NCBI GenBank assembly: GCA_963817735.1
Contig: CAWFPP010000012.1
Location: 32,228-96,227, forward strand
From: an uncultured Acidimicrobiaceae bacterium
GTDB taxonomy: Bacteria; Actinomycetota; Acidimicrobiia; Acidimicrobiales; RAAP-2
Direction of reading: 5' to 3'
DNA: 64,000 nt
The position numbers were made by a program, and so were the translations under genes. This document shows, piece by piece, positions 1,684-17,480 of the stretch (the stretch's first letter is position 1; each line of letters starts with the position of its first letter). A model generated the notes under the pieces. It worked only from the letters and a program-made list of their open reading frames with translations. It was not told the DNA's origin and made no database searches.

Positions 1684-1714
1684 GGGGTGACCCCGTACAT
1701 TGCCGGTCTGGGTG
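1684..1714 (+). repeat. Hairpin-tail repeat R1
   Basis: GGGGtgaCCCCGTACATTGCCGGTCTGGGTG. Lies between the sulfotransferase and DUF385 genes. Confidence 0.6.
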
Positions 1715-1779
1715 ATTGCCGAGTCGAAGGTATGAACAAATCTCGTCACCATCGAGCCTGGAAACTTTACTCTGCACCC

Positions 1780-2286
1780 ATGAATCCAATCAGCCAGTTG
1801 TTTCAGCGGTACTCGCGGTGGATGTACCGCTCCGGTCGGCCTAACTGGCTAGCGAAACCACAAAACCGTCTTTCGAGTCTTGCTTTCGGAGCTGGTCTTA
1901 TGCCCCAACGAGCTGCCAGCCTGGAGGTCATCGGCAGGAAGAGCGGTCAGCCGATAACCCTCCCAGTAGTCATCGCAGATTGGGACGGTGTCGAGTACCT
2001 GGTGTCCATGTTGGGTGACGGCGCGAATTGGGTCAAGAACATTCGCGCCGCTGACGGCGTCGCCATCCTACGTCGAGGCCATGAAGAACCCGTCAGGCTC
2101 GAAGAGGTCGCTATCGAGGACCGCCCACCGATAATTCGCCGTTATGCCGAAGTCGCTCCAGGCGGCCGCCCGCATTTGAAGCTGTCTCGCAACGCATCGA
2201 TCGATCAGTGCAGAGCGCTCGCACCCCGGATCCCGGTGTTTCGGATAACCCCGCTATCTACAAGTGGTCGAGGTGGTAACGCCTAA
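1780..2286 (+). CDS. Nitroreductase-family deazaflavin (F420H2)-dependent oxidoreductase, DUF385
   Basis: LEVIGRKSGQPITLPVVIADWDGVEYLVSMLGDGANWVKNIRAADGVAILRRG matches the DUF385/Ddn-like split beta-barrel family. ATG at 1780 chosen as the internal Met of ORF 1675..2286. Confidence 0.75.
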   Translation: MNPISQLFQRYSRWMYRSGRPNWLAKPQNRLSSLAFGAGLMPQRAASLEVIGRKSGQPITLPVVIADWDGVEYLVSMLGDGANWVKNIRAADGVAILRRGHEEPVRLEEVAIEDRPPIIRRYAEVAPGGRPHLKLSRNASIDQCRALAPRIPVFRITPLSTSGRGGNA

Positions 2287-2302
2287 CGCCGGGACGGAGC
2301 GG
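2285..2302 (+). repeat. Hairpin-tail repeat R2 (tail only, weak)
   Basis: AACGCCGGGACGGAGCGG. Lies in the 21-nt gap between DUF385 and DUF167. Confidence 0.3.
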
Positions 2303-2307
2303 CACGG

Positions 2308-2592
2308 TCACTCAGGTCTGCCGGAACGCAATAGATCAAGCGCTTTCTGGATGCGCCGAGCATCCACGGATGAGGCCTGAATCTCCAACAACTTCCTCCG
2401 ATTCTTCGGCCCTATCAAGAGGGTCACTGAGCGACGTGGCATGTCAACTGCCGCTGCCACGGCCCTCAGGGCGGCCTCGGTCGCTCGTCCGCTATCTGGC
2501 GGCTCAACGACGCGAACTATGAGTGCCCCGTCGAAGTCCCCACCGACACTAGGTGTTGATGCATTCGGCCGGACATGGATCTCCACCCGCAC
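2308..2592 (-). CDS. DUF167 (YggU-like) family protein
   Basis: VRVEIHVRPNASTPSVGGDFDGALIVRVVEPPDSGRATEAALRAVAAAVDMPRRSVTLLIGPKNRRKLLEI is the typical DUF167 core. GTG at 2592 gives about 94 aa. The longer track ORF (to 2778) would overlap the SRPBCC gene and repeat R3. Confidence 0.65.
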   Translation of the reverse strand: MRVEIHVRPNASTPSVGGDFDGALIVRVVEPPDSGRATEAALRAVAAAVDMPRRSVTLLIGPKNRRKLLEIQASSVDARRIQKALDLLRSGRPE

Positions 2593-2619
2593 TCGATCCA
2601 GTCTGCACGCTGCAGACGC

Positions 2620-2649
2620 GGGCTGCCCCAGTTCGCCGCCGGGAGTGGG
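2620..2649 (+). repeat. Hairpin-tail repeat R3
   Basis: GGGctgCCCCAGTTCGCCGCCGGGAGTGGG. Lies between DUF167 and SRPBCC. Confidence 0.6.
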
Positions 2650-2699
2650 CCGCTGACTCGGCTCGACACCTATCGAGCGCGTGTAGTGAACTTCGACGT

Positions 2700-3158
2700 A
2701 TGACCAAGAGGCTTGAGATCTCCCGTGACATCGACGTCCCGCCTGATCGGGTATACGCCGCCATTTCTGACGTGACACGCATGGGTGAGTGGTCAGAGGA
2801 ATGCCATGCCTGCGAGTGGCACGAGGGGTACGACGGTCCGGTCGTCGGCGCTACCTTCGACGGCCACAACCAGAATGGGGAGCACCAGTGGACCACGCAA
2901 GGGAAGGTCATCGAGGCTGACCCCGGGCGGGCCTTCGCCTTTGAGTGCTCGATGATGGACTTCCATTACTCGACCTGGGGATACCGCATCCAGCCGACCG
3001 AGTCGGGATGCCGTGTGACCGAATGGAATGAGGATCTGCGGCCCGAGTCGGTCCTGGAGTTCAGCAAGCAGACCTCGGGCGTGGATGACCGAACAGAGCG
3101 AAATCGCCGGACCATGAGCGTCACCCTTGCGCGCCTCGCCGAATCCCTAGAGAACTGA
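2700..3158 (+). CDS. SRPBCC (START/polyketide cyclase-like) family protein
   Basis: MTKRLEISRDIDVPPDRVYAAISDVTRMGEWSEEC... has the typical SRPBCC N-terminus and length (152 aa). ATG at 2700 lies inside track ORF 2553..3158. Confidence 0.75.
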   Translation: MTKRLEISRDIDVPPDRVYAAISDVTRMGEWSEECHACEWHEGYDGPVVGATFDGHNQNGEHQWTTQGKVIEADPGRAFAFECSMMDFHYSTWGYRIQPTESGCRVTEWNEDLRPESVLEFSKQTSGVDDRTERNRRTMSVTLARLAESLEN

Positions 3159-3190
3159 TCTGCTGGTTGTCGTCAGATTATTGATTTGGA

Positions 3191-3245
3191 CAGTCAGATT
3201 TGACTGACTGCCTCCGTTCGCTGCCGGGACGGTGGGGCAGTTCGG
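3191..3245 (+). repeat. Hairpin-tail repeat R4
   Basis: CAGTCAGatttgaCTGACTGCCTCCGTTCGCTGCCGGGACGGTGGGGCAGTTCGG. The tail is nearly identical to R18. Confidence 0.7.
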
Positions 3246-3268
3246 CACTTGCGGGCTAAGGCGGGGAA

Positions 3269-3301
3269 GGGGCGTCCCCGCTCGGTAACCGGTAGTTGCG
3301 G
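3269..3301 (+). repeat. Hairpin-tail repeat R5 (tandem to R4)
   Basis: GGGGcgtCCCCGCTCGGTAACCGGTAGTTGCGG. Confidence 0.5.
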
Positions 3302-3353
3302 ACGATCGGCGATGTCGAGAGTTCGTACAGACTCGCAGCCCGACCGACCTGGG

Positions 3354-3878
3354 TCAGATGTCGAGGTCGAGCCGCATGGCCACCTGCCCCTTAGGCGATA
3401 GTCCTCCGGCCACGTCGTGCTCCCCTCTGGCCAGCATCTCGGGTCCCAGTTCCGACTCATCCAGCACTCGGAAGCCGAGGTGCTCGTAGAGCGGACCGTT
3501 CCATGGCACCTCATAGAAGGTCGCCAGGGTTATTGCCGGTCGTCCCGCCGAACGCGCCCAGCTCTTGACCTGCTCGATGAGTGCTTTCCCGACCCCGTGT
3601 CCCTGGTGGTCGGGATGGACGCAGACGTGGAAGATGTGGGCGGCGTTGTCAAGGACACCTACGAGTATGTAGCCCACTACCTCGTCGTCAACCACAGCTA
3701 CCCAGGAGCGTTCTGACCGCGCATACTCGACCAGCAACTCGATGGAGTCCGGGGGGTTGGCAGCAACCTGGTCATAACCGATGGCGGCGAACTGGCCTTG
3801 GGTGGCCAACTCGATCTGTTGGAGACGTGGGGCGTCCTCGGAGCGAGCCGGACGGATGGTGAACCGGCTGTCGGGCAC
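3354..3878 (-). CDS. GNAT family N-acetyltransferase
   Basis: Acetyl-CoA binding motif A, VHPDHQGHGVGKALIE, and a 174-aa GNAT fold pattern. GTG start. Confidence 0.85.
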   Translation of the reverse strand: MPDSRFTIRPARSEDAPRLQQIELATQGQFAAIGYDQVAANPPDSIELLVEYARSERSWVAVVDDEVVGYILVGVLDNAAHIFHVCVHPDHQGHGVGKALIEQVKSWARSAGRPAITLATFYEVPWNGPLYEHLGFRVLDESELGPEMLARGEHDVAGGLSPKGQVAMRLDLDI

Positions 3879-3934
3879 GGGTTCATGGTGGCAGGTCAGA
3901 GCGACCGGGAGTTTGCCGATACCCGGGCGCTCTC

Positions 3935-3972
3935 GGGGTATCCCCGTTCGATCCTCGCTGCCGGCTCAGGGA
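3935..3972 (+). repeat. Hairpin-tail repeat R6
   Basis: GGGGtatCCCCGTTCGATCCTCGCTGCCGGCTCAGGGA. Shares the ATCCTCGCTGCCGGCTC variant with R15. Confidence 0.65.
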
Positions 3973-4033
3973 TGAGCCACCTTCTGGGGCCTAGGCTCCA
4001 CCCAGATGACGTGTCGAGTGAGAGGAATCGGTC

Positions 4034-4588
4034 ATGGAGGATGAATGGGGACCGCTTGGGGCGCTTGCTGGGGAGTGGGAGAGTGACAAGGGTGGCCTCG
4101 ATACAGCGTTCTCGCATTCCGAGGGGAAGGTGTTAGGCAGCCCCTACTTGGAGAAGTGCACGATGAAGCCGTTCGGCCCGGTCGACAATGGGGAACAGCA
4201 TCTCTATGGACTTGACTACAAGAGCGCAATGTGGCGAGGCGACGAGGAGAATCCCTTCCACACAGAGGTCGGCTACTGGCTGTGGGACCCGGCCACCGGC
4301 GAGGTCATGAAGGGTTTCGTCGTCCCCCGCGGCATTACCGCTCTGGCCGGAGGAACGGCTGCCGCCGATGCCACTGAGTTCACCCTGAAAGCAGTGCTCG
4401 GAGAGGCCCAGTACAACATCGGCGAGAACAAGTACCTGGCCAAGAACGCCAGCACTCTGAGCTACGAGGTTGCCGTCACCGTGGGCAAGGACACCTGGTC
4501 CTACGACGAGGTCACCATGCTCCGAATGAAAGAGTTCGATGAGCCGTTCGCCCACACCGACCACAACACCCTGCGCCGGGTGAGCTGA
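4034..4588 (+). CDS. Heme-binding beta-barrel (nitrobindin/THAP4-like, DUF1794) protein
   Basis: N-terminal LAGEWESDKGG (GxWxG-type) motif, 184 aa, alternating beta-strand pattern. Family recognised from memory, no search run. Confidence 0.6.
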   Translation: MEDEWGPLGALAGEWESDKGGLDTAFSHSEGKVLGSPYLEKCTMKPFGPVDNGEQHLYGLDYKSAMWRGDEENPFHTEVGYWLWDPATGEVMKGFVVPRGITALAGGTAAADATEFTLKAVLGEAQYNIGENKYLAKNASTLSYEVAVTVGKDTWSYDEVTMLRMKEFDEPFAHTDHNTLRRVS

Positions 4589-4738
4589 GCCAGGAACAGA
4601 CCTACTGCGACTGGTGCTATTCGACGCTCACCGAGGAGGACCGCACAAGGTCCCGAGCGCTGGGGTTCGACAAGATACGAACCTGGGCGTGTATTCGGTG
4701 CATCGACGCAAAGCGAATCTCGGAAGCGCCTGGCGGAT

Positions 4739-4763
4739 GGGATGGCCCGTTGCCGGCCGATCC
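4739..4763 (+). repeat. Hairpin-tail repeat R7 (weak)
   Basis: GGGatgGCCCGTTGCCGGCCGATCC. Confidence 0.35.
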
Positions 4764-4778
4764 GAAGTAGTCGCCAGC

Positions 4779-4804
4779 GGGTGTCCCCGTCCGCCGGGAT
4801 GGCG
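4779..4804 (+). repeat. Hairpin-tail repeat R8
   Basis: GGGtgtCCCCGTCCGCCGGGATGGCG. Confidence 0.55.
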
Positions 4805-4824
4805 TCACGCTTTCGCCATGAAGG

Positions 4825-5235
4825 TCACGGCATCCAAGGTCTGCGACGATTCGACCTGATACCGCAAGGTCCCTTTCTAAGGGCGGCAGTGAAGAACTCC
4901 AAAGCGATGTTGTCCGGATCACGACAAGAGAGCCCAGCGCCGTAGTCGGCATCGACGATTCCACCATTCTCAAGCTCATCTCGATCACTGCAGGTGAAGG
5001 CCAGATGGTCCAGGCCAATTCGACGTTCATCGAAGGGAATGGCATCAGATGGATCGGGGAATCCGTGCAGCCCGACGAGCGTTTGACCTTCAACAAGCCA
5101 GACAGCTCGTCGAAACGGGCCAGGGCTTTCGTCCCGGTGCAACGCCACGTCGAAGAGTCTTTCGTACCAATGGACACTGCGGTCGAGGTCACTGACTGTC
5201 AAGGTCACATGGGCGATCGTCGGGACCTCAAGCAT
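4825..5235 (-). CDS. VOC (glyoxalase/bleomycin-resistance/dioxygenase) family protein
   Basis: IAHVTLTVSDLDRSVHWYERLF...GLDHLAFTC...RDPDNIALEFF is the classic VOC pattern. Met at 5235 chosen inside ORF 4825..5277. Confidence 0.7.
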   Translation of the reverse strand: MLEVPTIAHVTLTVSDLDRSVHWYERLFDVALHRDESPGPFRRAVWLVEGQTLVGLHGFPDPSDAIPFDERRIGLDHLAFTCSDRDELENGGIVDADYGAGLSCRDPDNIALEFFTAALRKGPCGIRSNRRRPWMP

Positions 5236-5285
5236 GAAGCCTCCCCGTGGAGCCAATGACTTGCCGTCGCTGGTCATTCTTGCCT

Positions 5286-5313
5286 GGAAATGCCCCAGTC
5301 CGCCGGATATGCG
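5286..5313 (+). repeat. Hairpin-tail repeat R9
   Basis: GGaaatgCCCCAGTCCGCCGGATATGCG. Lies between the divergent VOC and HNH genes. Confidence 0.5.
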
Positions 5314-5369
5314 TCTTTCCTCGGCATTCGAGATTTACTGTATTCAGTGCGGCTTTGGAGGAATTTGAG

Positions 5370-5726
5370 ATGCCCGGATTTGACGACGCTCTTAGGGGTT
5401 ACGCGTATCCAGTTCACGAGAGGGATTTGTTTTGCTGTCGATATTGCGGGCTCGATGGACGCGACTCTTTTAGCAACTGGCTCTCTTTGTCCTGGGACCA
5501 CCTTCTCCCGAAAGGCTCTCCGGACCGCGACAATCCTGACTTCATCGTGACCGCCTGCAAGTTCTGCAATACAGCCGACAATCGCTACTTCGATATGGCA
5601 GAGCGGAGAGGGCTAGTGCTTGACGGACTGAGTCCGGACGAACTCGTTGCTCAGCGCTTGCCCTACGTCGAAGCTACGCGTCAAAAGTACCGGGAATTCT
5701 GGAGCCAGCACGTGAGTTCGGACTAG
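5370..5726 (+). CDS. Small HNH endonuclease-like protein
   Basis: CRYCG...WDHLLPKG...ACKFCN is a Cys/His HNH-type arrangement. GGAGG lies 9 nt upstream of ATG 5370. Locally AT-richer sequence. Confidence 0.6.
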   Translation: MPGFDDALRGYAYPVHERDLFCCRYCGLDGRDSFSNWLSLSWDHLLPKGSPDRDNPDFIVTACKFCNTADNRYFDMAERRGLVLDGLSPDELVAQRLPYVEATRQKYREFWSQHVSSD

Positions 5727-5733
5727 TTCCCGA

Positions 5734-5771
5734 GGGGCTAAATGCCCCCGTACATTGCCGCCGGGATAGCG
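5734..5771 (+). repeat. Hairpin-tail repeat R10
   Basis: GGGGctaaatgCCCCCGTACATTGCCGCCGGGATAGCG. Shares CCCCGTACATTGCCG with R1. Confidence 0.65.
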
Positions 5772-5923
5772 ACAGAGTGTTGCCCTCCAAAAGGCCCAGC
5801 CAAGTCCTTCCAACCGGCTAAGAAGCCATTGCTTTCTCGGGCAGAACGAATCGAGTTCTCATCTCTCAGAACTACTGGTGAATGGTCGTAAGATCCCACC
5901 ACGACACCTGAGGAGGATGAGGC

Positions 5924-6304
5924 ATGGATGTCCGCTCGGCGAGGGATGTAGCACCGGTTATCGAACATGCCGGGACGGTACCGGTCTGGTGGCTAATTCA
6001 ACCCGGTGAGCTAAAGGATGCGACTACTGGCGGCTTCCTTGAGCTGGTCAGCGAGTGGGAAGTTGCCGGCGGTGGGCTCGTCGATCCCCACTCACATCCC
6101 ACTCACGAGTTCTATTACATCATTTCCGGACGCGGCATCATGAAGATTGCGGACGAGGAACGAGAGGTCGGACAAGGGGATCTAATCAGGATTCCGCCAA
6201 ACATCGTTCACAGTATTTGGCCGTTGACGGAAAACTCTGGACTCCGGGGCCTGGCCTTCGCCGTCGGCATCGAGGGAGCCGGTCCGGTCGACTACACGAG
6301 CTGA
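5924..6304 (+). CDS. Cupin domain protein
   Basis: Cupin motifs GGGLVDPHSHPTHEFYYIISGRG and GDLIRIPPNIVHSI. 126 aa. Confidence 0.8.
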   Translation: MDVRSARDVAPVIEHAGTVPVWWLIQPGELKDATTGGFLELVSEWEVAGGGLVDPHSHPTHEFYYIISGRGIMKIADEEREVGQGDLIRIPPNIVHSIWPLTENSGLRGLAFAVGIEGAGPVDYTS

Positions 6305-6340
6305 GACAGGGGTGCGGTACCCGATCATTCACCTGCCCTA

Positions 6341-6736
6341 CTAGGCCGGGCTGGTGGCGTATTTGCGACGCTCAAATCGAGCGACGTGGACCTCCGTGGG
6401 GTGGTCGAGGGAGTAACCATAGCCGATTCCAGACTCAGTCAGGTCTCGGCCTATGCCTCGGTGAACTTCGACACAGTCAAAACCCAGGAGGTCGTATTCG
6501 TGCTGAACACGCTCAAGATTCTGAATCGGAAAATGAGGATTCGGAACGACTGGTGTCTGGTATTTGAAGGACTGGCAAGCGCCGTCCGCCGTCTCGTTCA
6601 AATCGGCGAGAAACTCGGCTTCCAACTCAGCCCTTGAACGTGTGCCGAAGGTTTCAGCCAAGACCATCCAAGAGCAGACCATCCCGAGCCAAACGGGCAG
6701 AATCCAGTACCGACGCACGGGGAAGTGTGCCACCAT
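6341..6736 (-). CDS. Hypothetical membrane-anchored protein
   Basis: MVAHFPVRRYWILPVWLGMVCSWMVLAETF has an N-terminal hydrophobic anchor. Met at 6736 chosen because the longer ORF (to 6883) would read through repeat R11 and the end of the ParB-like gene. Confidence 0.4.
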   Translation of the reverse strand: MVAHFPVRRYWILPVWLGMVCSWMVLAETFGTRSRAELEAEFLADLNETADGACQSFKYQTPVVPNPHFPIQNLERVQHEYDLLGFDCVEVHRGIGRDLTESGIGYGYSLDHPTEVHVARFERRKYATSPA

Positions 6737-6746
6737 CGCGTCGGTA

Positions 6747-6813
6747 GGGGTGCCCTGCCCCCGTTCGCTGCCGGATATGGGTTCCCGGTGCTCACCATTC
6801 GGGCAGCGGTCAC
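6747..6813 (+). repeat. Hairpin-tail repeat R11 with an inverted partial partner
   Basis: GGGGtgccctgCCCCCGTTCGCTGCCGGATATGGG, followed 20 nt later by CGGGCAGCGGTCAC, the reverse complement of the CGCTGCCCG core. Confidence 0.65.
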
Positions 6814-6839
6814 CTGGGATGCTCAAGCGGTTCGGCGAC

Positions 6840-7334
6840 CTAAGGATCGGTGAGACCCATTTCGCTGGCCCCGATCGCCCCACCTCCGTGCTCTTTCAGG
6901 TATCGGTCTTGGTCCACCTCACCCGCGAATAGGAGAACTATCCAGGCATGGGTGGCGCCCATTCGGCGCAGTGCGTCGTAACGATGGTTTCCGTCCTCGA
7001 GGAAGTACTTGCCGTCGTGATGCGACACCAACAGCGGCGGGGGTTGCCACCCCAGCTCGACGCTATGTTCCATCGCCTCGACGTCGGACTCCCAGATCCC
7101 CTCCGCCACAGAAACAACCACTTCGTCACCGACGGGGCCGGCCATCGGCGTGAGTCGGTCGAGCGCGAATCGGATCGGACCCACGTAGGTCGCGCCACTC
7201 ATGGCGAAGGCGGCCGCCAGCGCAGAGTTGCTACTGCCCGGGCTAGCGAGGAAGTCAACCACCCATTCAGCCAGTCGCCCCTCGTCCGCGGCATGCTGGG
7301 CCGAGGCGAGTGAGAACTTCTGGTCGTCGGTCAC
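6840..7334 (-). CDS. ParB/Srx-like N-terminal (nuclease-type) domain protein
   Basis: PPLLVSHHDGKYFLEDGNHRYDALRRMG resembles the ParB-like nuclease DGxHR motif. The start overlaps the HAD stop by 4 nt (operon). Confidence 0.55.
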   Translation of the reverse strand: MTDDQKFSLASAQHAADEGRLAEWVVDFLASPGSSNSALAAAFAMSGATYVGPIRFALDRLTPMAGPVGDEVVVSVAEGIWESDVEAMEHSVELGWQPPPLLVSHHDGKYFLEDGNHRYDALRRMGATHAWIVLLFAGEVDQDRYLKEHGGGAIGASEMGLTDP

Positions 7335-8050
7335 GCGGACGCCGTCGCGATCAGCTCGGCGAGCCCTACCAAAGAGTCGATCCGTTCGTAATCGGCGTCG
7401 AAGTGGAGGCCAAGCGGATCCATGAGAATCGGTCGGATCCCGGCTCGGCGGGCGCCGACTACATCGATGGCAGGCATATCACCGACGTACCAAATCCGAT
7501 CCGCGTCGAGACTGAGGAGGTCGATAGCCACCTCGAATATCCGTGGGTCAGGCTTCATGACGCCGACGTTTCCGGAATCGATTACGCACTCGATCTCCAC
7601 GCCGATGCCGGGACCCACTTGGCACAGTTCGAGTTTGGCAAGCCGAGAACCCATCATTCCATCGGCGTTGGAGATGATACCGAGCCGGACCCCGGTGTCG
7701 GCGAGGGCCTGCAGTCCTTCGCGGCTGCCCGGGATCGGTTCGACCCACAGCGCCGCATCAGCGAACTCGCTATCGAGGTGGCGATGGGCGTCGTCACGCC
7801 GATCTCTCGGTACGCCGCACTCGTCGACATACGTTTGGAGGTAGTCGAGCCAGGCCTCAGTCCAGTTCGCCTCGACGTCGAGGTGCGTGCCGAACCTTGC
7901 TGCGGCCCGGTAGTGCGCGTCTGCCAGCACCTCTCGACGGACGCAGCACTCGGCTCGTGTGAAAGCTCCCAGGATCCGTTCGGGGTCGGGAAGGACGAAC
8001 ACGCCCCCGGCGTCGAGGAGTACTGCGGCGGGGTCGCCTGTGTAGGCCAT
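7331..8050 (-). CDS. HAD-IA family hydrolase
   Basis: HAD motifs: motif I-like LLDAGGV, GIISNADG, KPDPRIF, and WYVGDMPAIDVVGARRAG. Confidence 0.8.
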   Translation of the reverse strand: MAYTGDPAAVLLDAGGVFVLPDPERILGAFTRAECCVRREVLADAHYRAAARFGTHLDVEANWTEAWLDYLQTYVDECGVPRDRRDDAHRHLDSEFADAALWVEPIPGSREGLQALADTGVRLGIISNADGMMGSRLAKLELCQVGPGIGVEIECVIDSGNVGVMKPDPRIFEVAIDLLSLDADRIWYVGDMPAIDVVGARRAGIRPILMDPLGLHFDADYERIDSLVGLAELIATASA

Positions 8051-8148
8051 GCCCAGAACCTACTCAGGCGACGCCCCTGCTGGCGGCGTCAGGTCCGTCC
8101 AGAGATCCACCAGTGGCGAGAGGCTCGGGTCCCTCGCCAATCGCACCT

Positions 8149-8170
8149 GCCCCCTACCGCCGGGACTGTG
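8149..8170 (+). repeat. Hairpin-tail repeat R12 (weak)
   Basis: GCCCCCTACCGCCGGGACTGTG. Confidence 0.35.
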
Positions 8171-8211
8171 AGACACAATGGATTAGCAGCACTATCGGTT
8201 GCCGGATGGGT

Positions 8212-8796
8212 CTAACCGTTCGTGGTTGTCTGAGTCACGGTCACGCTCCCGAGGGGTGTTACACCAGCCTTTGCGATGACGAACCCGTTTCCGCTTGGCA
8301 GGGTGCACTTCATTCCTTGCATCAAGGACAGGCACGTAATGGAGTCGAGGGTGACGGAGTACTCGTACGGCAGAGTGGGGGTCCCAATGCCGGCGTTCGC
8401 AAGGCATTCGCCGCCGGTACACGACGTAAGTGTGGACGGGGCGGTCAGCGTGGCCGACTGTGGAGGTGAGAGTGTGTAGCAATAGGCCAGGTTCTCCGAA
8501 TTGGTGCCACTCTGCGTGTCGATTTCGCAGCTGATGTTTCCCGACGGCGAGTAGAACTCGGTGCTAGTCGGAGTCTCGGGGACAAGCGTCCCAGTTGTCG
8601 TGGTTACGGCGCCAGCAGTCGTCGTGATCGAGGCGGGAGTCGTGGTCTCGGTTGTGGAGCTCACGGGACTTGAGGTCGAGGTCGTCGATGTCGCCGATGG
8701 AGGTGCCGAGCTTGAGCAGGACGAAAAGATCGAGGCAGCTGTGCCGACGATCCCAATCAGGATCATGGCCCGCCCAATTGGTCGCCAACGAGCCAC
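8212..8796 (-). CDS. Hypothetical secreted Ser/Thr-rich, Cys-containing protein
   Basis: Signal or lipoprotein-like N-terminus (ILIGIVGTAASIFSSCSSS), a long S/T/P linker, and a Cys-rich C-terminal domain. Confidence 0.5.
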   Translation of the reverse strand: MARWRPIGRAMILIGIVGTAASIFSSCSSSAPPSATSTTSTSSPVSSTTETTTPASITTTAGAVTTTTGTLVPETPTSTEFYSPSGNISCEIDTQSGTNSENLAYCYTLSPPQSATLTAPSTLTSCTGGECLANAGIGTPTLPYEYSVTLDSITCLSLMQGMKCTLPSGNGFVIAKAGVTPLGSVTVTQTTTNG

Positions 8797-8894
8797 CTGC
8801 GAAGCGTAGGCCAGTGGGATCGCATCCCGTAGGCCATGGGGTTAGTCGAGGGCACGTAGGTATGGCCCGGGTCAAGCGAGCCCTTCTAGTGCTT

Positions 8895-8931
8895 GGGTGG
8901 CCCCGTACGCCGGGAAGGTGGGGCAGTTCGG
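8895..8931 (+). repeat. Hairpin-tail repeat R13
   Basis: GGGtggCCCCGTACGCCGGGAAGGTGGGGCAGTTCGG. Confidence 0.65.
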
Positions 8932-11473: not shown

Positions 11474-11505
11474 GGGCTGCGTCAATCCTCGCTGCCGGCT
11501 CGCGG
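11474..11505 (+). repeat. Hairpin-tail repeat R15, adjacent to the IS110 5' end
   Basis: GGGctgCGTCAATCCTCGCTGCCGGCTCGCGG. Confidence 0.55.
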
Positions 11506-11516
11506 CGACATAGCTC

Positions 11517-12635
11517 ATGAAACCGTGGCTGTCAGAAGGCTCAATGAGGCGCCTAATACCCCCTGTTCTCATCGTTGTATTGGCGTCAGTGACGATCGGA
11601 GCCGCCCTCATCGGCCAGAGCGAGAGCCCAGGGACTGGCGGAAATCCAGAGGCTCAGGCGACCTTGAACAACGCGGTCCACAAGACACTCGCAGGCGAGA
11701 GTGTGACCATGAGTCTGGGTCAGGGCTTCACGGTTGTCTACGAAGCCCCAGATCTCACGGAAACCGCGATGCCGTTTAACGGCGTGACGATCCAGGATGG
11801 TTCACACACGTTGACGAAAGGATTCGGCCAATGGTTCGAAGATCTGCCTTCTGGGTACGTGCCGGGGCCCTACGCGGCCCTCTTTTCACCTTCGCAGGTC
11901 CTCGGACGGCTGCTCCATCTACCCGACCTCGAGGTCAAGGGTGCCCAGACGTTCGTGTCCAAACGCGTTCTTGCGCCCACCAGGAAAGTTCACAGCACCG
12001 TCACCGTCATCGAGACAGTGCACACAGCTGATGGATTCATTGTCAGCGTCCGCACCACTTATCGAAACGCCCCGCCGATTCCCGTGGCTACTTGTGGCAA
12101 CTGTCAAGGCGAAGCATTTGCTACACCTCTTGCGAGCAGCACCGCGGTCACGTTTGGTGGCTTCAATTCATGGCACGTATCGATCCCTGCCTCGGACGAA
12201 ATCGTGACCCGCACGACCGTGGCCACACAGAAGATAGGCCATGACCGCCTTGCCGTGTACGAATGGGCGTCTGGGGGATCCTCGGGTACGACCACCGGAT
12301 TCAGTCTGACGAATGAACTGGGTAGCCCGATCGACGGCGGTAGCGGGGGCCCCACGGGAGCCCCGATATCGGGACCGGACGGTCTCTTTCCTGAGGGAGG
12401 GGGTTCAAGCGGTCCGGGGTCCTGGGGCGACGTCACGGTGTCGGTGTCGGGTAGCGACGTCACCAGCGTGAGACTGGTCGTGGGCGCCCTAACCGTTGAT
12501 GTCATGGTCCCCGCGAAAGTCGGTTCCAGTCGATTCGTGATTCTCCTCGCCAGGGTGCCAAAGGAAGGAGAAACTTCGATCCAAGGGCTCAATTCGTCCA
12601 ACCAGGTGGCCACATCGACTCCCTACAGCTGGTGA
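11517..12635 (+). CDS. Hypothetical secreted protein
   Basis: N-terminal anchor or signal sequence (RRLIPPVLIVVLASVTIGAALIG), a Gly/Ser-rich segment, coding-like third-position GC. 4-nt overlap with the next gene. The true start may be Met at 11544. Confidence 0.5.
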   Translation: MKPWLSEGSMRRLIPPVLIVVLASVTIGAALIGQSESPGTGGNPEAQATLNNAVHKTLAGESVTMSLGQGFTVVYEAPDLTETAMPFNGVTIQDGSHTLTKGFGQWFEDLPSGYVPGPYAALFSPSQVLGRLLHLPDLEVKGAQTFVSKRVLAPTRKVHSTVTVIETVHTADGFIVSVRTTYRNAPPIPVATCGNCQGEAFATPLASSTAVTFGGFNSWHVSIPASDEIVTRTTVATQKIGHDRLAVYEWASGGSSGTTTGFSLTNELGSPIDGGSGGPTGAPISGPDGLFPEGGGSSGPGSWGDVTVSVSGSDVTSVRLVVGALTVDVMVPAKVGSSRFVILLARVPKEGETSIQGLNSSNQVATSTPYSW

Positions 12636-13336
12636 ATGCAATCATGGATGCGTGGTATCCGGATGATGGCGATCCGTCGGTGATCGGAGAATCGTCCGAC
12701 GAACGAGAGCAGCATCGTCGATCACTCTGGGCGTATTACGACCGGCGGGTGGCCGGACGCTTGCCTGGCTTGGCCAACGCCCATGCCTACTGGACGCGTC
12801 TAGGCGTCACTGTCGAAGTCGAAGACATCGCCGCTGAAGCTGCGCAGCTTGAACGCCTACTTCGTGAACTCTCTGCAGTCCGCTTTGTCGAGGTAGGTGC
12901 CGGGCCAGGCACTTTCACCCGATACCTGTCAGGGAGTGGCATCGCCATCGACCAGAGTCGAAAGGCGCTCGACGTTCTGCGCACCGAAGCTCCGGGGGTG
13001 CCTGTGATCCAGGCAGATGCCACAGCCCTACCCGTAGGATCCCACGCCGTCGACCGCTGTTTCTCCGCCCACCTTTATGGCTTGCTTCTTCCAGGCGAGC
13101 GTGAATCCTTTCTTGCCGAGGCGCACCGGGTTGCGTCCGAGGTCGTAATCCTTGACGCAGGTCGCCCCCGGGGCGTGAGCGCCGAGGAGTGGCAAGAGCG
13201 GACCCTGCCCGAAGGAGATCACTACAGAGTCTTCCGCAGACACTTTGATGCGGACGCGTTGGCCGCCGAAGTCGGTGCTGAGGTCCTGTTCGCCGGGCAG
13301 TTCTACGTGCTGGTGGGCACTACGGCGGCCTCGTAA
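12632..13336 (+). CDS. Class I SAM-dependent methyltransferase
   Basis: Motif I VEVGAGPGTFTRYL and post-I/II pattern (IQADATALP...). ATGA overlap with the upstream gene. Confidence 0.75.
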   Translation: MNAIMDAWYPDDGDPSVIGESSDEREQHRRSLWAYYDRRVAGRLPGLANAHAYWTRLGVTVEVEDIAAEAAQLERLLRELSAVRFVEVGAGPGTFTRYLSGSGIAIDQSRKALDVLRTEAPGVPVIQADATALPVGSHAVDRCFSAHLYGLLLPGERESFLAEAHRVASEVVILDAGRPRGVSAEEWQERTLPEGDHYRVFRRHFDADALAAEVGAEVLFAGQFYVLVGTTAAS

Positions 13337-13470
13337 AATTTCAGCTCCCGAATCGAGGCGGACCGGGAAAGGTGTGCCGGTCCTCGAACTTTCCGTTGGA
13401 AGCTCAGCCACGCGCCCGGTATCGCGTACCCGAGGCCCAATGACCGGATCGGACCTCCGCTTCGCACCTA

Positions 13471-13492
13471 ACCCAGTTCGCCGGGTAGTTGG
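13471..13492 (+). repeat. Hairpin-tail repeat R16 (weak)
   Basis: ACCCAGTTCGCCGGGTAGTTGG. Confidence 0.35.
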
Positions 13493-13518
13493 ACCAACGA
13501 TCTGGCCGAGTCCTCCGT

Positions 13519-13863
13519 TCAACCGATGCAGAATTCGTTGCCTTCAGGGTCAAGCATGACGGTCCAACTGCTTCCGTTGCCCTCTCGGTACTCGACCTTG
13601 GTCGCGCCGAGAGCGACGAGGTGCTGGATCTCCTCCTCTGGGTTCTTGGTGGCCAAGTCAACGTGCATTCGGCTCTTCGTCGTCTTTGGTTCGGGAACCC
13701 GCCAGAACAAGAGCCCCCGGACGCCTCGGTGGTCGGGGGCCACCAGAGCTGCGAACTCATCGTCTTCAGCTACGGACTGATAGCCGGTGACTTCTGACCA
13801 GAAGGCTGAGAGCCGCCTTGGATCGCCACAATCGAATGTCACGTATTTGATGAACGCCGTCAT
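13519..13863 (-). CDS. VOC family (glyoxalase-like domain) protein
   Basis: IKYVTFDCGDPRRLSAFWSEVTGY...RMHVDLAT...LVALGATKV...VMLDPEGNEFCI is typical of Glyoxalase_6-like proteins. Confidence 0.75.
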   Translation of the reverse strand: MTAFIKYVTFDCGDPRRLSAFWSEVTGYQSVAEDDEFAALVAPDHRGVRGLLFWRVPEPKTTKSRMHVDLATKNPEEEIQHLVALGATKVEYREGNGSSWTVMLDPEGNEFCIG

Positions 13864-13939
13864 GGTCCGAAGCTAGGCCAGAATCCGCGCAAACAGGCGC
13901 AAGATCTCAACCCGCGATCTTGTAACCGCACCCGCGGTT

Positions 13940-13972
13940 GGGGTGCACCAGTTCGCTGGATGGTGGGACAGG
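13940..13972 (+). repeat. Hairpin-tail repeat R17
   Basis: GGGGtgcaCCAGTTCGCTGGATGGTGGGACAGG. Confidence 0.55.
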
Positions 13973-13995
13973 ACGCCGCTTGGGATCGCAGGCGA

Positions 13996-14562
13996 TCAGC
14001 CATCTCCGGGCGATCGCTGAGAAAGCTGAATAATCGGAATCGTTCGATGTGCCATGGCTGCCTCACGTCGATAAGTCGCGTAAGCCGGGAACACCCGGTC
14101 CGCCATGGACCACAGCCTGTCTCGATCAGCTTCGTTGTTCACCACCCTGGCTCTCATCGGGATTCCGCCGAAGAGAACATCTGGATGAGCGCGGACGTTG
14201 TGATACCAATCAGGATGCTTCGAACTCCCGGCGTTCGAGGCTGCGATGGTGACTCTTTCACCATCGTGAAAGTAGATGATGGCATTGCGCCGCCGTGCGC
14301 CGCTTTTTACCCCTTTTGTCTCCAACACAGCCGTCGGGAAGACCAGTGTCGTAGCCAATCGTCCATGGCTCACTCGCAAGAGGATTGGATCGAGCTTCCA
14401 GCCGACTTTGCACGACACATACCTGGCGAAGCGTGCCGTGGCGAATGTTGCGTACATACGAGCGAACACGCCAGGCGGCCGAATCGGGTCGACGCATTTG
14501 AGACTGACGGCCAACGCGGACACTCTCCCTTCCGCTATCACCACACTGGCATTTGCGACCAT
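13996..14562 (-). CDS. Nitroreductase-family deazaflavin (F420H2)-dependent oxidoreductase, DUF385 (second paralogue)
   Basis: LLRVSHGRLATTLVFPTAVLETKGVKSGARRRNAIIYFHDGERVTIAASNAGSSKHPDWYHNVRAHPDV is the Ddn/DUF385 core. Met at 14562 preferred, because the track start 14613 lies inside repeat R18. Confidence 0.75.
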   Translation of the reverse strand: MVANASVVIAEGRVSALAVSLKCVDPIRPPGVFARMYATFATARFARYVSCKVGWKLDPILLRVSHGRLATTLVFPTAVLETKGVKSGARRRNAIIYFHDGERVTIAASNAGSSKHPDWYHNVRAHPDVLFGGIPMRARVVNNEADRDRLWSMADRVFPAYATYRREAAMAHRTIPIIQLSQRSPGDG

Positions 14563-14603
14563 TGCGTACACTGTTTGTCGGAAGCGTAGTTGGGTCCGTC
14601 GAT

Positions 14604-14645
14604 GGTGCCCCATTTTCGCTGCCGGGACGGTGGGACAGTTCGCAC
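14604..14645 (+). repeat. Hairpin-tail repeat R18
   Basis: GGtgCCCCATTTTCGCTGCCGGGACGGTGGGACAGTTCGCAC. Confidence 0.7.
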
Positions 14646-14686
14646 ATATGGGCTAGGGGCTGATCCGGCATTTCAGTCCGGTGGAA

Positions 14687-14708
14687 GGGGTAACCGCTAC
14701 TTTGGACG
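14687..14708 (+). repeat. Hairpin-tail repeat R19 (tandem to R18, weak)
   Basis: GGGGtaaCCGCTACTTTGGACG. Aligns with R5. Confidence 0.35.
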
Positions 14709-14711
14709 CGT

Positions 14712-15060
14712 ATGAATGCTGGGGTGTGCGTCCGCATCTACCGACCGAGGGCGCTGATTGGCTGGGGCGGATACTTCAACGTCGTGATCGACGGGGTTGA
14801 GCGGGCCAACTTTGGTCAAAGCAGATGAAGACGTTCGACGTTTGCCGGGGCGACACGAGGTTCAACTGAAATACGGGGTGCTTCCTCGATCAGCCGTGCA
14901 AGAGTTCATCGCAAGCGCTGGAGACGTTGTGAGCTTTGCTTGCTCGCCTGCGCAGACGGCACTGGGCTTGACCGGCTTGCGACCCGCCTCGGCGAGAGAC
15001 AGCGCAGAGATGGAAGCCCTGGTTGTCAAGCCGCCGTCTCCAAGGAACATCTCGCCACCC
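14712..15060 (+). pseudogene. Possible frameshifted small protein (YRP...IDG...PGxH pattern, DUF2846-like?)
   Basis: ATG 14712 gives MNAGVCVRIYRPRALIGWGGYFNVVIDGVERAN, then stops. The sense continues in the +1 frame (LVKADEDVRRLPGRHEVQLKYGVLPRSAVQEFIASAGDVVSFACSP) after a TTT run near 14808. The 3' end is uncertain. Confidence 0.25.
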
Positions 15061-15125
15061 CAGTCCATAATCATCCTGACGAGCGGCTCCGATAGGAAAC
15101 GTTGGCGGCGAATGGCGGCCGTCGA

Positions 15126-15151
15126 GGGTCGCCCAGTTCGTCGGGATCGAG
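15126..15151 (+). repeat. Hairpin-tail repeat R20
   Basis: GGGtcgCCCAGTTCGTCGGGATCGAG. Confidence 0.5.
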
Positions 15152-15163
15152 ACGCCGTACGAC

Positions 15164-15970
15164 TCAGGCAGCGACAGCCCGGCCCAGTACCGCCCTCATG
15201 ATCACGTGGGGATCACTGCTGGCCTGTTCCTCTATGGCGACGAACAGCGCCTCTTGTTGGGGTGGGCCCAGTGCTGCAACCGTTGGACCGTAGGTGGAGC
15301 CGGTGATTCCGAGGGCTGCGCATCGGGGCTCGGGCCACAGAAGCGGGACCTCAACGGTGCGGACGACTGTCTGTTTGGCAGCCACCGTCGTGAGCAGGCG
15401 CCCGATCTCGCTCTCCGACATGGTGACGACCGAGGTGTCGTATGCGTTTGGGTACGGTTCAGGAACGCCATGGTCCTGGAGTATCCGAGCGTAGGAGGCG
15501 AAGGGCTCGGGCGGACACTCGTCGGACCAGACGGCGATCCCGAGAGCGCCACCGGGACGCAGCACTCGGATCATTTCCGTGATCGCGGCGTGTCGGTCAG
15601 ACATGAACTGCAGACCCTGTTGGCAGTAGACGGCATCGATGACTCCATCGGGCAGAGCGAGATGGTCGGCAGGGCTTTCGAGTGCTTCCACCGCGGCCCG
15701 GTCATCCGTTGCTTCGCATCGAACTCCGGCGACCATGAGCGGGCTGACGTCAGAGGCGATCACCCGTCCGCCCGGTCCGACAATGGGTGCCGCCGCGTGT
15801 GCCACCGCACCTGTCCCTGCCGCGACGTCGAGCACCAGGTCCCCGGACGAAGGGGCCACGAAGGCCAGTAGCTCCCGCGCCCACGGATCGAACACTGCCG
15901 GCTGCAGGTAGTGCCGATAGCCGTCCGGAACAGAGGTGAAGTTGAACAGACCTGGCTCGGGTTCGCTCAT
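15164..15970 (-). CDS. Class I SAM-dependent methyltransferase
   Basis: Motif I VLDVAAGTGAVA, DAVYCQQGLQF, and LRPGGALGIAVW. Confidence 0.8.
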   Translation of the reverse strand: MSEPEPGLFNFTSVPDGYRHYLQPAVFDPWARELLAFVAPSSGDLVLDVAAGTGAVAHAAAPIVGPGGRVIASDVSPLMVAGVRCEATDDRAAVEALESPADHLALPDGVIDAVYCQQGLQFMSDRHAAITEMIRVLRPGGALGIAVWSDECPPEPFASYARILQDHGVPEPYPNAYDTSVVTMSESEIGRLLTTVAAKQTVVRTVEVPLLWPEPRCAALGITGSTYGPTVAALGPPQQEALFVAIEEQASSDPHVIMRAVLGRAVAA

Positions 15971-15994
15971 AGGCCAAAACTACTGCTCGCCCCT

Positions 15995-16017
15995 GACCCG
16001 TTCGCCGGCTGGGTGCG
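15995..16017 (+). repeat. Hairpin-tail repeat R21
   Basis: GACCCGTTCGCCGGCTGGGTGCG. Lies between the two methyltransferase genes. Confidence 0.5.
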
Positions 16018-16779
16018 CTACTTGTGGGCTCGCAGCCAGAACCTCCGATGGGGCACCCGGATCGGTCCGTCGTGAAGCCGAAGGAGCGCCTGGCGGTGCG
16101 TGCTGACCGTGAAGCCGGGGACGGCCCACGGCACCGATCGCAGATACCAGGCGAGGGCGCCGATGTCGGCGAACACCGTTGTCGCGGTCCCGACCTCGGC
16201 TTCGTCGATGCTCAGACCCGCATCCTGGAGTTGCGCAACGATCATGTCGAGCTCCAGCTCTTGAACGCTGGGTGACTCTCTTCCGAGGAGCTCGTGGAAC
16301 TGTTGGGAAGCCGAGTGCGTCTGTTGAGTGAGAAACGTGCCCTCACGACGGAGCACCCGAGCCACCTCGGTGGCCCGGAAGCTCTCGTGGCGATTGGTGA
16401 CCAGATCGAATGTCTCGGTGCGAAATGGCAACCGGCCCGCCGGATCCCCGGGCTCTTGGCGATGATTGTCTGTTGCGCCCTCCGTATAAACGACGGGGAT
16501 TCCCAGCGGGCGGAGTCTGCCCGTCGCGACCGCAACGTTCGGTTGCCAGCCCTCGGTCGCAACCGTGATGAGGGCGCGAGCGCGCAGCGACGACAGCCAC
16601 TCGCCGCCGCCGGTCCCCATATCAAGCATTCTTGTGCTGTCTGCGGCCGCGTTTGCGACGATCTCCTCGAAGTCCCAATCCGGCGACTCCAGCGCCAACC
16701 GGTCCCCCAGCGTCGAGAAGTCCCATCCTTGAAAGGTCGTGGCCTCGGCCTCGGCCAGCAACTCCTCGGGGTCGACCAT
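16018..16779 (-). CDS. Class I SAM-dependent methyltransferase
   Basis: MLDMGTGGGEWL motif I, FDLVTNRHE, and LRREGTFLTQQ. Met at 16779 chosen inside ORF 16018..16890. Confidence 0.7.
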   Translation of the reverse strand: MVDPEELLAEAEATTFQGWDFSTLGDRLALESPDWDFEEIVANAAADSTRMLDMGTGGGEWLSSLRARALITVATEGWQPNVAVATGRLRPLGIPVVYTEGATDNHRQEPGDPAGRLPFRTETFDLVTNRHESFRATEVARVLRREGTFLTQQTHSASQQFHELLGRESPSVQELELDMIVAQLQDAGLSIDEAEVGTATTVFADIGALAWYLRSVPWAVPGFTVSTHRQALLRLHDGPIRVPHRRFWLRAHK

Positions 16780-16860
16780 GCACCCAAGTATCTGCCGTCC
16801 GGAAGGGCTCCACCTAATGCGGCGCGTCCGCCTAGGGTTCGCTCCCATCACCGCTGCCGT

Positions 16861-16881
16861 CGAACGCCGGACCGGTGGGTC
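16861..16881 (+). repeat. Hairpin-tail repeat R22 (tail only, weak)
   Basis: CGAACGCCGGACCGGTGGGTC. Resembles R2. Confidence 0.3.
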
Positions 16882-16944
16882 ACACTCCAACCTCGGCCAC
16901 TCACAAGCCTTGAGAAAATCCTGATGCTCCAGGTAAGGATTCGA

Positions 16945-16983
16945 TGTAGTTAAGGGGCGTAGTTAAGGGATGTAGTTAAGGGG
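16945..16983. repeat. 3 x 13-nt perfect-to-near-perfect tandem repeat (TGTAGTTAAGGGG)
   Basis: tgtagttaagggg / cgtagttaaggga / tgtagttaagggg. The stop codon (16963-16965) and last codons of the membrane protein gene lie inside it. Confidence 0.8.
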
Positions 16984-17388
16984 CCAAGCCTCTGTATTCA
17001 CACGCAGGTCGGGTCGGATGACCTGAATTTCCTTGAGGAACGCTCGCAAACCCTTTCGAACCGGAATGGAGACGCAGAAAGAATCGCGTCCAATGAGCAC
17101 CCAGATTCCTGGACCGACGCGGGCCTGGCGAACAGCCGAGAGTTCGTCTATCCGAAGTTCGCCTGTGGCTAACGGGGCGCTCCATCGGAGTCGGTCTCCG
17201 GTTAGCTCCAGCCTGTACGCCCGACGAAAAAGAGTCCGGAACACAGTCCAAATGATGACCGCCACGAAGACAATCACCACAAGGACCAAAACCGCAGGCA
17301 TTTGATTGGCGGCAACAATGAACCCGACAGCCAAAACAGTCATCACGGCCGCGAGCCCGAGGGAGAGGGGGCGGACGAATCCCGGCAT
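16963..17388 (-). CDS. Hypothetical two-TM membrane protein with PH-like C-terminal part
   Basis: MPGFVRPLSLGLAAVMTVLAVGFIVAANQMPAVLVLVVIVFVAVIIWTVF then YRLELTGDRLRWSAP... Met at 17388 preferred, because the longer ORF (to 17499) reads through repeat R23. Confidence 0.45.
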   Translation of the reverse strand: MPGFVRPLSLGLAAVMTVLAVGFIVAANQMPAVLVLVVIVFVAVIIWTVFRTLFRRAYRLELTGDRLRWSAPLATGELRIDELSAVRQARVGPGIWVLIGRDSFCVSIPVRKGLRAFLKEIQVIRPDLRVNTEAWPLNYIP

Positions 17389-17444
17389 CCGATAGCGGGT
17401 CAGCACGGGACCAGTGTTGCCAAGGATCACCGCCAGCCGGGTAA

Positions 17445-17480
17445 GGGGCGGACCATCCCCGTTCGCTGCCGGGATAGAGG
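17445..17480 (+). repeat. Hairpin-tail repeat R23 (last copy seen)
   Basis: GGGGcggaccatCCCCGTTCGCTGCCGGGATAGAGG. Confidence 0.7.

Follow-up and report, generated by a model that had tools for sequence, protein, structure and literature searches.

Introduction

The closest described counterparts of the system reported here are integrons and the attC-site clusters without an integron-integrase (CALINs), in which co-oriented sites stand between accessory cassettes of one or two genes, crossover takes place at a fixed position, the same cassette is met in different arrays, and arrays occur both with and without a neighbouring tyrosine recombinase. Surveys of integrons found no complete integrons in Actinobacteria (PMC4889954, PMC9024848). 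Here we describe a family of short, co-oriented intergenic repeats first noticed in a stretch of 64,000 nucleotides (termed the window) from an uncultured Acidimicrobiaceae bacterium (assembly GCA_963817735.1, contig CAWFPP010000012.1, positions 32,228 to 96,227 of the forward strand). In our reading these repeats probably mark where mobile gene cassettes are joined to one another in one group of actinobacteria from soil and peat.

Two other groups of elements bear comparison. The repetitive extragenic palindromic sequences (REP) with their bacterial interspersed mosaic elements (BIME), and the dRS3 repeats of Neisseria with their intergenic mosaic elements (NIME), are targets of IS110/Piv-family recombinases and cause mosaic intergenic arrays. 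The pdif modules of Acinetobacter plasmids and the integrative mobile elements exploiting Xer (IMEX) at dif use double-strand sites of ~28 bp, built of two arms and a short central region, that flank gene modules and are served by Xer-type tyrosine recombinases (PMC7399989, PMC12907356). Our searches of the accessible literature turned up neither the repeat described below nor a comparable system or platform.

Results

A co-oriented repeat occupies the intergenic gaps of an accessory block

An earlier reading of the window (hereafter the original prediction) had described a short repeat in the intergenic gaps of a block between positions 1684 and 17,480, with 22 of its 23 copies on the + strand. 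A profile built from 15 aligned window copies was searched against the window and 9.3 kb of DNA upstream of it; its matches (E<0.05) all lay on the + strand between 2.6 and 17.5 kb, with one additional match 3.7 kb upstream of the window. A second profile, built mostly from copies of other genomes, returned 14 window matches at E≤1, again confined to the + strand and to the interval 2.3-16.9 kb, as compared to a mean of 0.16 and a maximum of 2 in 100 dinucleotide shuffles of the block, so that the core motif is commoner than composition predicts. When degenerate copies read by eye are included, the count for the window rises to 23; they lie between 0.65 and 17.5 kb and occupy almost every intergenic gap of this interval. 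All 23 are on the + strand: the polarity first claimed stands, and the single - strand copy claimed with it could not be found, that strand of the window being free of copies. The 46.5 kb of core sequence between 17.5 and 64 kb are likewise devoid of the repeat, as the original prediction had it. Its outline of the block was also borne out, except that the start at 1684 has to be moved upstream, to a degenerate copy at ~652-682 within an island that begins before the window does.

The block is less rich in G+C (0.585-0.644) than the sequence beyond it (0.643-0.719). Its genes are small, unrelated and directed both ways, with the Pfam content listed in the original prediction. Rfam gave no match in the window at the gathering threshold and one chance match only at E≤1 in 1-18 kb.

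The family forms polar arrays in related genomes

An exact 22-mer from the repeat tail (the 3' arm described below) was used to scan one genome per species, which yielded 44 loci, nearly all in metagenome-assembled genomes (MAGs) of Acidimicrobiaceae and often several per genome. The same 22-mer found 71 loci in JGI metagenomes, many on contigs starting or stopping at a repeat, and no match in viral contigs; in plasmids there were chance partial matches only. Many of the short-read metagenome contigs (L052-L122) begin or end ≤~100 nt from a copy, which is consistent with the repeat, or the variable neighbours at the repeat, breaking assemblies.

The consensus of 152 copies, GGGTGCCCCAGTWC^GCCGGGACGGTGGGGCAGTTCGGCAC-N4-GGGG (the sign ^ marks the joint), shows conservation between -14 and about +33 relative to a near-invariant GCCGG. 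The site is ~45-50 bp long and can be divided into a 5' arm, GGGTGCCCCAGTWC, the core GCCGG(G), and a 3' arm, ACGGTGGGGCAGTTCGGCAC-N4-GGGG; a hot spot of insertions and deletions coincides with the exact boundary of GTWC and GCCGG. In 1.0 Mb of loci, neighbouring copies form 212 co-oriented pairs versus 7 opposed ones. The distance from joint to joint has a median of 874 bp and usually encloses 0-2 open reading frames (ORFs), of which 61 run in the direction of the array and 71 in the opposite one, in other words at random. Arrays of opposite orientation lie 272 kb apart on one contig and elsewhere converge within 2 kb. The strand of the repeat showed no link to the local GC skew (23/45 loci; 8-kb windows, a weak test).

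The site is conserved in sequence and not as a hairpin

The repeat had been described originally as a hairpin followed by a tail, the stem keeping its pairing while its bases vary, and this had been taken as a sign of selection on a folded structure. These expectations did not hold. Folding of the 5' and 3' halves in the 152 copies was no stronger than in DNA that was shuffled or drawn at random from genomes. No specific complementarity was detected between halves as compared to permuted partners (z = 0.35 and -0.8), either within a copy or with the partner half at the other end of the same cassette. RNAalifold, run on 54 strong copies, found no consensus structure (-0.08 kcal/mol) and 0 covarying pairs, and the GGGG-loop-CCCC hairpin is present in a subset of copies only. 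Judged by these comparisons, the repeat behaves like a sequence-conserved, double-strand site and not like a folded hairpin. Around the core, TGCCCCA and TGGGGCA stand as the arms of an imperfect inverted repeat with an 11-6-11 layout of 28 bp. On direct reading, TGCCCCAGTTC-GCCGGG-ACGGTGGGGCA fits this layout, its outer 7 nt being inverted. This is a site predicted from sequence alone, and its layout is, by analogy, that of tyrosine recombinase core sites on double-stranded DNA.

The same data bear on two other readings of the arrays. The first is a classical integron cassette array, that is, a CALIN with divergent attC sites: the array organisation, the cassette-like genes and the missing adjacent integrase are all CALIN-like (PMC4889954). 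We nevertheless consider this reading extremely unlikely. Pairs of attC boxes (R''/R', RYYYAAC...GTTRRRY, 50-150 nt apart) number 0 on either strand of window 1-18000 (0.68 in shuffles), in keeping with their reported absence in the original prediction; there is no conserved hairpin, the site being conserved in sequence; and gene orientation is random. Furthermore, the recombinases encoded in related loci reach 30-75 bits with the integron-integrase model TIGR02249, for which the cut-off is 265, and Actinobacteria are without complete integrons (PMC4889954, PMC9024848).

The second reading invokes tandem non-autonomous HUH transposons (IS200/IS605 or IS91 type), each inserting 3' of a GTWC supplied by the right end of the previous element and thereby generating co-oriented arrays. 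GTTC is the target of IS91, and the joint of the repeat indeed comes after a GTTC/GTAC-like tetranucleotide; strict polarity regardless of gene direction also fits. Against it, the repeats lack subterminal hairpins, no HUH gene was seen among the recurrent proteins of the arrays, the repeat strand is unlinked to GC skew, and arrays face both ways on a single contig or converge at close range. This makes the HUH reading very improbable.

Homologous modules switch at a single point of the repeat

When loci from different genomes were compared, 30 of the 107 ends of homology blocks fell within 15 nt of a joint, the random expectation being 1.4%. The argument for an exchange point rests on base-level diagnostic positions. 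In base-by-base comparisons of 7 modules and of 14 module ends, the switch always occurred between -2 and +9 of C^GCCGG. A non-consensus 5' arm travels with the upstream module and a non-consensus 3' arm with the downstream module, which places the switch at C^GCCGG. For example, loci L084 and L095 share 99.9% identity along 2.4 kb but are unrelated directly after ...CCCCCGTTAC^GCCGGGAGC, and between L058 and L056/L105 the cassette downstream of the joint is 98-99% identical next to an unrelated upstream neighbour. The cassette of the window that encodes a GNAT protein shares 97.6% identity with L043, ending at 3950. Homologues of this cassette stand mostly on short contigs or in non-array settings, and their contexts added little. 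An apparent breakpoint between L083 and L101 was rejected, as it was merely a pair of contig ends.

The original prediction had proposed that the repeats are recombination sites of a non-integron cassette-capture system and that breakpoints of gene gain and loss would fall on them. Homologous modules of different arrays do switch at C^GCCGG, and the mosaic modules, the fixed switch point and the absence of the island from relatives (see below) argue for this proposal.

The window array belongs to an island missing from orthologous loci

Orthologues of the adenylate cyclase gene that flanks the block on its right (window 17544..18863, - strand) were located and their contexts fetched (L046-L050). 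In these 5 loci from relatives the cyclase gene directly abuts a Cupin_2 or Peripla_BP_6 gene, beyond which lies ApbA. In L048 the gap between the two flank genes measures 57 nt, whereas in the window contig 22.8 kb separate these flanks. The intervening island occupies window positions 1..17546 (+ strand), as delimited by synteny with L046-L049, gene order in L050 and low G+C content, and extends 5.2 kb upstream of the window, to position ~4025-4056 of L001. The block is thus not a syntenic and invariant feature of the lineage, the island being missing from 5 orthologous loci, and 124 kb of core loci from relatives contain 0 copies of the repeat.

At its upstream end the island encodes proteins of 636 and 249 aa that, by translated sequence, look membrane-like and not like recombinases and have no Pfam family match. 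Its edges read TAGC-(CCGG)-CAGTTGACGCAC... and ...GTTCGCT-(GCCGG)-GATAGAGG, from which the island might have been seeded at a CCGG pseudo-site. As a separate observation, L051 carries a single alcohol-dehydrogenase gene (11108-12453) in the same cupin/cyclase spacer with no bounding repeat, so this spacer is a general variable spot.

Convergent arrays flank a Xer-like recombinase gene in other loci

The cognate recombinase was expected from the outset to lie outside the window, and none is encoded inside it. Array flanks showed no recurrent recombinase, only unrelated housekeeping or accessory genes and assorted insertion sequences (IS). L012, however, contains a gene for a 303-aa Xer-like tyrosine recombinase. 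The gene was met again in L133 (90% identity) and L065, and the contexts of its close homologues were scanned with a sequence-only model of the repeat. In L134, + copies at 2414-9443 are followed by the Xer-like gene at 10001-10912 and by - copies at 11460-16347. Three more loci (L135, L136 and L137) have the same layout, with the gene between a + array and a - array, the upstream repeats lying on the strand of the gene and the downstream repeats on the other; L138, L133, L012 and L065 are consistent with this platform layout on their visible sides. The whole data set contains 7 flips of array orientation, all convergent and none divergent, and in 4 of the 7 the Xer-like gene is found inside the flip together with a partner ORF.

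The partner ORF encodes 136-154 aa without a Pfam match and is convergent with the Xer-like gene, overlapping its stop (L134 10909-11319, -; L138 10933-11397, -; L012 131-520, +; L136 ~10921-11414, -); the copies of L134 and L138 are 77% identical. The innermost joints of the arrays read CCTGCCCCCGTAC^platform and, on the other strand, GGGTAGCCCCGTAC^platform. Such joints of a 5' arm with the platform on both sides are exactly what circular cassettes inserted at two inverted attI-like sites would be predicted to leave. The 5' leader of the Xer-like gene is conserved as GGTGTTCGCTGTC(T/C)TC...ACAAGGAGGA (L134 9960-9998; L136 9963-9998; L133 ~5535-5500; L065 ~1478-1512) and contains GTTCGCTG, which resembles the repeat core GTTCGCTGCC; this element may be a regulatory or attI-like feature.

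Among solved structures, XerD and XerA are nearest to the Xer-like protein, which scores 118 bits as compared to equivalog cut-offs of 330-335 for XerC/XerD. The family counts 3570 proteins at E≤1e-60; the best 120 are 77-98% identical and mostly on short contigs, and some homologues are labelled Jiangellaceae (including a Jiangellaceae MAG) or Actinomycetota. Either the system is present well outside Acidimicrobiaceae or a promiscuous element carries the gene.

The orientation flips are also informative about a reading that the original prediction had kept as its alternative, a lineage-specific polar REP-like family. According to this reading the repeat would be a selfish or structural intergenic element of accessory islands, the mosaicism would stem from hot spots of homologous or illegitimate recombination and of mobile-element insertion, and there would be no cassette system. 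The family is indeed lineage-specific, short, intergenic and multi-copy, and no recombinase stands beside the window array or most array flanks. Additionally, IS110 elements, which classically target REP sequences, insert into the repeat, as detailed in the next section. The fit is nevertheless poor: the repeat has no palindrome or conserved hairpin, its copies are co-oriented instead of forming inverted pairs, and both the window core and the core loci of relatives are free of it. All 14 module ends share one exchange point, although the longest identity, where homologous crossovers would be expected, is the 3' arm; and array orientation flips exactly at the recombinase gene. We therefore regard a REP-like repeat as an unlikely explanation and retain cassette joints as our reading.

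Several mobile elements target the exchange point

As first reported, the block contains an IS (window 10154..11490, - strand; transposase 10171-11217), which Pfam (PF01548 and PF02371, the DEDD transposase and Transposase_20 domains) and NCBIfam (NF033542, 166 bits for a cut-off of 140) assign to the IS110 family. It splits a copy of the repeat into a 5' half at 10141..10153 and a 3' half at 11491..11510 (both + strand, by direct reading) and is inserted at the exchange point, CCCCAGAA-(CG)-AT...CCT-(CG)-CTGCCGG. Homologous elements in L013, L032 and L044 have the identical placement, which makes 4 loci with an insertion at the same point, and two further IS110 types use neighbouring positions, giving three types in all at the exchange point. 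IS110 genes are the most recurrent in the arrays, two types being present in 12 and 7 loci, respectively. When the non-coding end of the window IS110 was compared with its target, no clear guide complementarity emerged.

Small insertions were found exactly at the exchange point, at 3951-3959, 1699-1701 and 5754-5756 of the window and at ~5663 of L024, and they look like IS110 scars. One of them, ATCCTCGCT, agrees with the initial 2 nt and the final ~5 nt of the window-type IS110 together with a CG core in duplicate, and the ATT of GTAC-ATT-GCCGG variants equals the 3 nt with which another IS110 type begins (ATTGATAC...). A second type with a 467-aa transposase is present at L023 ~3530, L024 ~5672, L034 ~4325 and L106 ~1843. 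It always abuts GCTAAA^TG(C/T)CCC, targets the repeat arm in either orientation, and probably explains the GGGGCTAAATGCCCC hairpin noted at window 5735 in the original prediction.

A transposon of 2.5 kb was also found inserted in copies of the repeat, with GCCGG on both sides (L037 2412-4880, -; L040 1426-3878, +). It encodes a tandem pair of tyrosine recombinases, one of 355 aa and the other of 427 aa and rich in Cys at its C-terminus, between perfect terminal inverted repeats (TIRs) of 16 bp, TTATACAGGTGATCC. Its remnants were recognised in L011 (1-396), L003 (114-314), L018 (~2519-2680) and L065 (~1180-1250). In L036, at least 2 tyrosine recombinase genes (5246-6457 and 7302-8000) of the same orientation directly follow a six-copy array, a gene set resembling a recombinase-in-trio element.

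These elements raise the question of whether the cassettes are real but moved by another enzyme, either that of the two-recombinase transposon or an RNA-guided recombinase of IS110 type, the Xer-like gene being a passenger or part of a transposon. The crossover of the two-recombinase transposon is GCCGG, and the element or its remnants occur in six loci; the IS110 elements are the most recurrent in arrays and act in the same phosphodiester region; and the Xer-like family is suspiciously conserved across taxa. However, direct comparison shows the TIRs to be unlike the repeat arms, and insertions of the transposon leave both flanks co-oriented, as a parasite would. Recombination by IS110 elements requires a donor site different from the target, which counts against them as movers. 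Finally, neither element is found at the orientation flips, unlike the Xer-like gene. We consider another mover improbable and keep the Xer-like enzyme as the candidate.

Distribution of the copies along the window

The copies not located above all lie on the + strand. The leftmost, a degenerate copy at 652..682 (CCTAGCCCAGTGC^GGGACGAGGACG, direct reading), is the left joint of a sulfotransferase cassette that is 83% identical to L011 2857-3879, the homology beginning at this copy and stopping at the next one (1684..1716, GCCGG at 1702), which was read as GGGGTGACCCCGTAC-ATT-GCCGG with ATT as an insertion. Profile matches follow at 2277..2304 (GCCGG at 2288), 2621..2650 (GCCGG at 2638) and, for a full-length copy of 38.7 bits, 3206..3260 (GCCGG at 3223). 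A degenerate copy at 3271..3300, GCGTCCCCGCTC^GGTAACCGG, was read by eye only and missed by every profile; it comes 61 nt past the previous joint, the two enclosing an "empty cassette". The joint of the GNAT cassette at 3938..3975, GTTCG-ATCCTCGCT-GCCGG (reading and profile), carries a collapsed IS110 scar.

Further profile matches were obtained at 4778..4812 (GCCGG at 4793), 5288..5316 (GCCGG at 5302) and 5741..5777 (GCCGG at 5760, a variant with ATT and GCC insertions). The copy at 6333..6362, CTGCCCTACTAG^GCCGGGCTGGTGG, was found by reading and has a weak profile match, and profile matches resume at 6755..6783 (GCCGG at 6770, a GCT variant), 8145..8177 (GCCGG at 8159) and 8895..8931 (GCCGG at 8909, 39.9 bits). 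Beyond the copy split by the IS110 element, a short variant at 13281..13306, GTCCTGTTC^GCCGGGCAGTTC, read directly and with weak profile matches, stands at the end of a methyltransferase ORF. The profile then detects copies at 13467..13496 (GCCGG at 13480), whose upstream cassette is 89% identical to L078 up to the joint, 13944..13972 (GCTGG core at 13955), 14604..14657 (full-length, GCCGG at 14621), 15125..15159 (GTCGG core at 15140), 15996..16023 (GCCGG at 16004) and 16855..16883 (CTGCCGTCGAAC^GCCGGACCGGTGGGTCAC). The last copy, at 17452..17484 (GCCGG at 17466; reading and profile), is followed by a spacer of ~80 nt and the core cyclase gene. In a gap between two cassette genes, window 16946-16984 holds three tandem copies of a 13-nt unit, GTAGTTAAGGGGN.

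Discussion

The account that we find likely, if far from certain, is an integron-analogous cassette system with double-strand recombination sites, the window array being a recombinase-free copy of it. Each cassette would begin with a 3' arm and finish with a 5' arm, carrying between them one or a few genes that may face either way, with strand exchange at C^GCCGG. Arrays would grow by conservative recombination of a circular cassette carrying one complete site with a chromosomal site, and sites gained in this way would of necessity be co-oriented. The putative catalyst is the 303-aa Xer-like tyrosine recombinase, perhaps acting with the partner ORF product. At the platform, cassettes inserted at two inverted attI-like sites would build two convergent arrays. 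The window array, a 22.8-kb island without recombinase and comparable to a CALIN, would be served in trans and may have started from a CCGG pseudo-site within the short stretch that separates two convergent core genes.

Several points weigh against this account. Homology blocks delimited by BLAST are partly expected to end near repeats because all copies resemble each other, and we infer recombination itself from comparing sequences. Neither the window nor the 9.3 kb that precede it (73 kb of contig) encode a tyrosine recombinase, and it is the position of its gene that points to the Xer-like enzyme. Three convergent flips contain no Xer-like gene (L004 1244/2307, L032 646/5084 and L006 3492/5073). 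L134/L135 and L136/L137 are pairs of near-duplicates, so that there are only 2 independent fully flanked platforms, with 4 more loci one-sided. The large Xer-like family across Actinomycetota could indicate a promiscuous transposon rather than a dedicated integrase. Seeding requires an extra assumption, because the empty sites of relatives carry no repeat. Lastly, the use of a single 22-mer of the 3' arm to fish for loci biases the sample to one sub-family.

In its broadest form, which we put forward tentatively and hold with less confidence than the account above, the proposal is that Acidimicrobiaceae, and perhaps many Actinomycetota, possess an independently evolved analogue of integrons. 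A platform of a Xer-like recombinase and a small partner would be flanked by convergent arrays of ~45-bp double-strand sites with a C^GCCGG crossover, in which cassettes carry their own promoters and point in either orientation, and platform-free arrays would be served in trans. If so, an equivalent system based on another site and another recombinase clade would help to explain the exchange of small accessory genes in abundant soil and peat bacteria, cassette capture would have evolved more than once and would need no folded single-strand site, and a new pair of recombinase and site would become available for the engineering of GC-rich actinobacteria. In practical terms, the repeat would explain the fragmentation of short-read assemblies in these regions and offers a simple sequence handle to recover cassettes from metagenomes.

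How does the system compare with those already described? It differs from REP and dRS3 elements, with which it shares a short, lineage-specific, intergenic repeat, in that those are palindromic, can face either way or form inverted pairs, and bound non-coding units, whereas the repeat described here is not a palindrome as a whole, keeps a strict polarity, is restricted to islands, and delimits genes. A transposase of the REP-associated tyrosine transposase (RAYT) type was not seen among the recurrent proteins scanned, small ORFs not being exhaustively screened. With pdif modules and IMEX the system shares modules flanked by sites and, as proposed here, would share double-strand sites of two arms and a short central region and a Xer-type enzyme. 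However, pdif sites alternate or are inverted and use the host XerC/XerD, whereas here direct repeats form long chromosomal arrays, the core (GCCGGG) is GC-rich, and the candidate enzyme falls below the XerC/XerD cut-offs.

With integrons and CALINs the system has in common the co-oriented sites between small accessory cassettes, the fixed crossover position, the recurrence of a cassette in different arrays, and arrays with and without a neighbouring tyrosine recombinase. It also shares IS110-family specialists on the site, in the manner of the IS1111-attC group, the part of the IS110 family that specialises on attC. In contrast to attC, the repeat is conserved in sequence without hairpin or R''/R' boxes and is crossed in its middle rather than at its 3' edge. 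Genes are oriented at random, whereas integron cassette ORFs mostly run along the array; the candidate enzyme is a plain 303-aa Xer-like protein that falls far short of the IntI model cut-off; arrays converge on the recombinase gene from both sides, whereas a divergent intI has a single array that leads off from it; and the host phylum is one without integrons (PMC9024848). The system is integron- or CALIN-like in its working, yet it lacks each defining feature of attC and IntI that was tested, and the Acidimicrobiaceae block points to an integron-like gene-capture system in a phylum essentially without true integrons.

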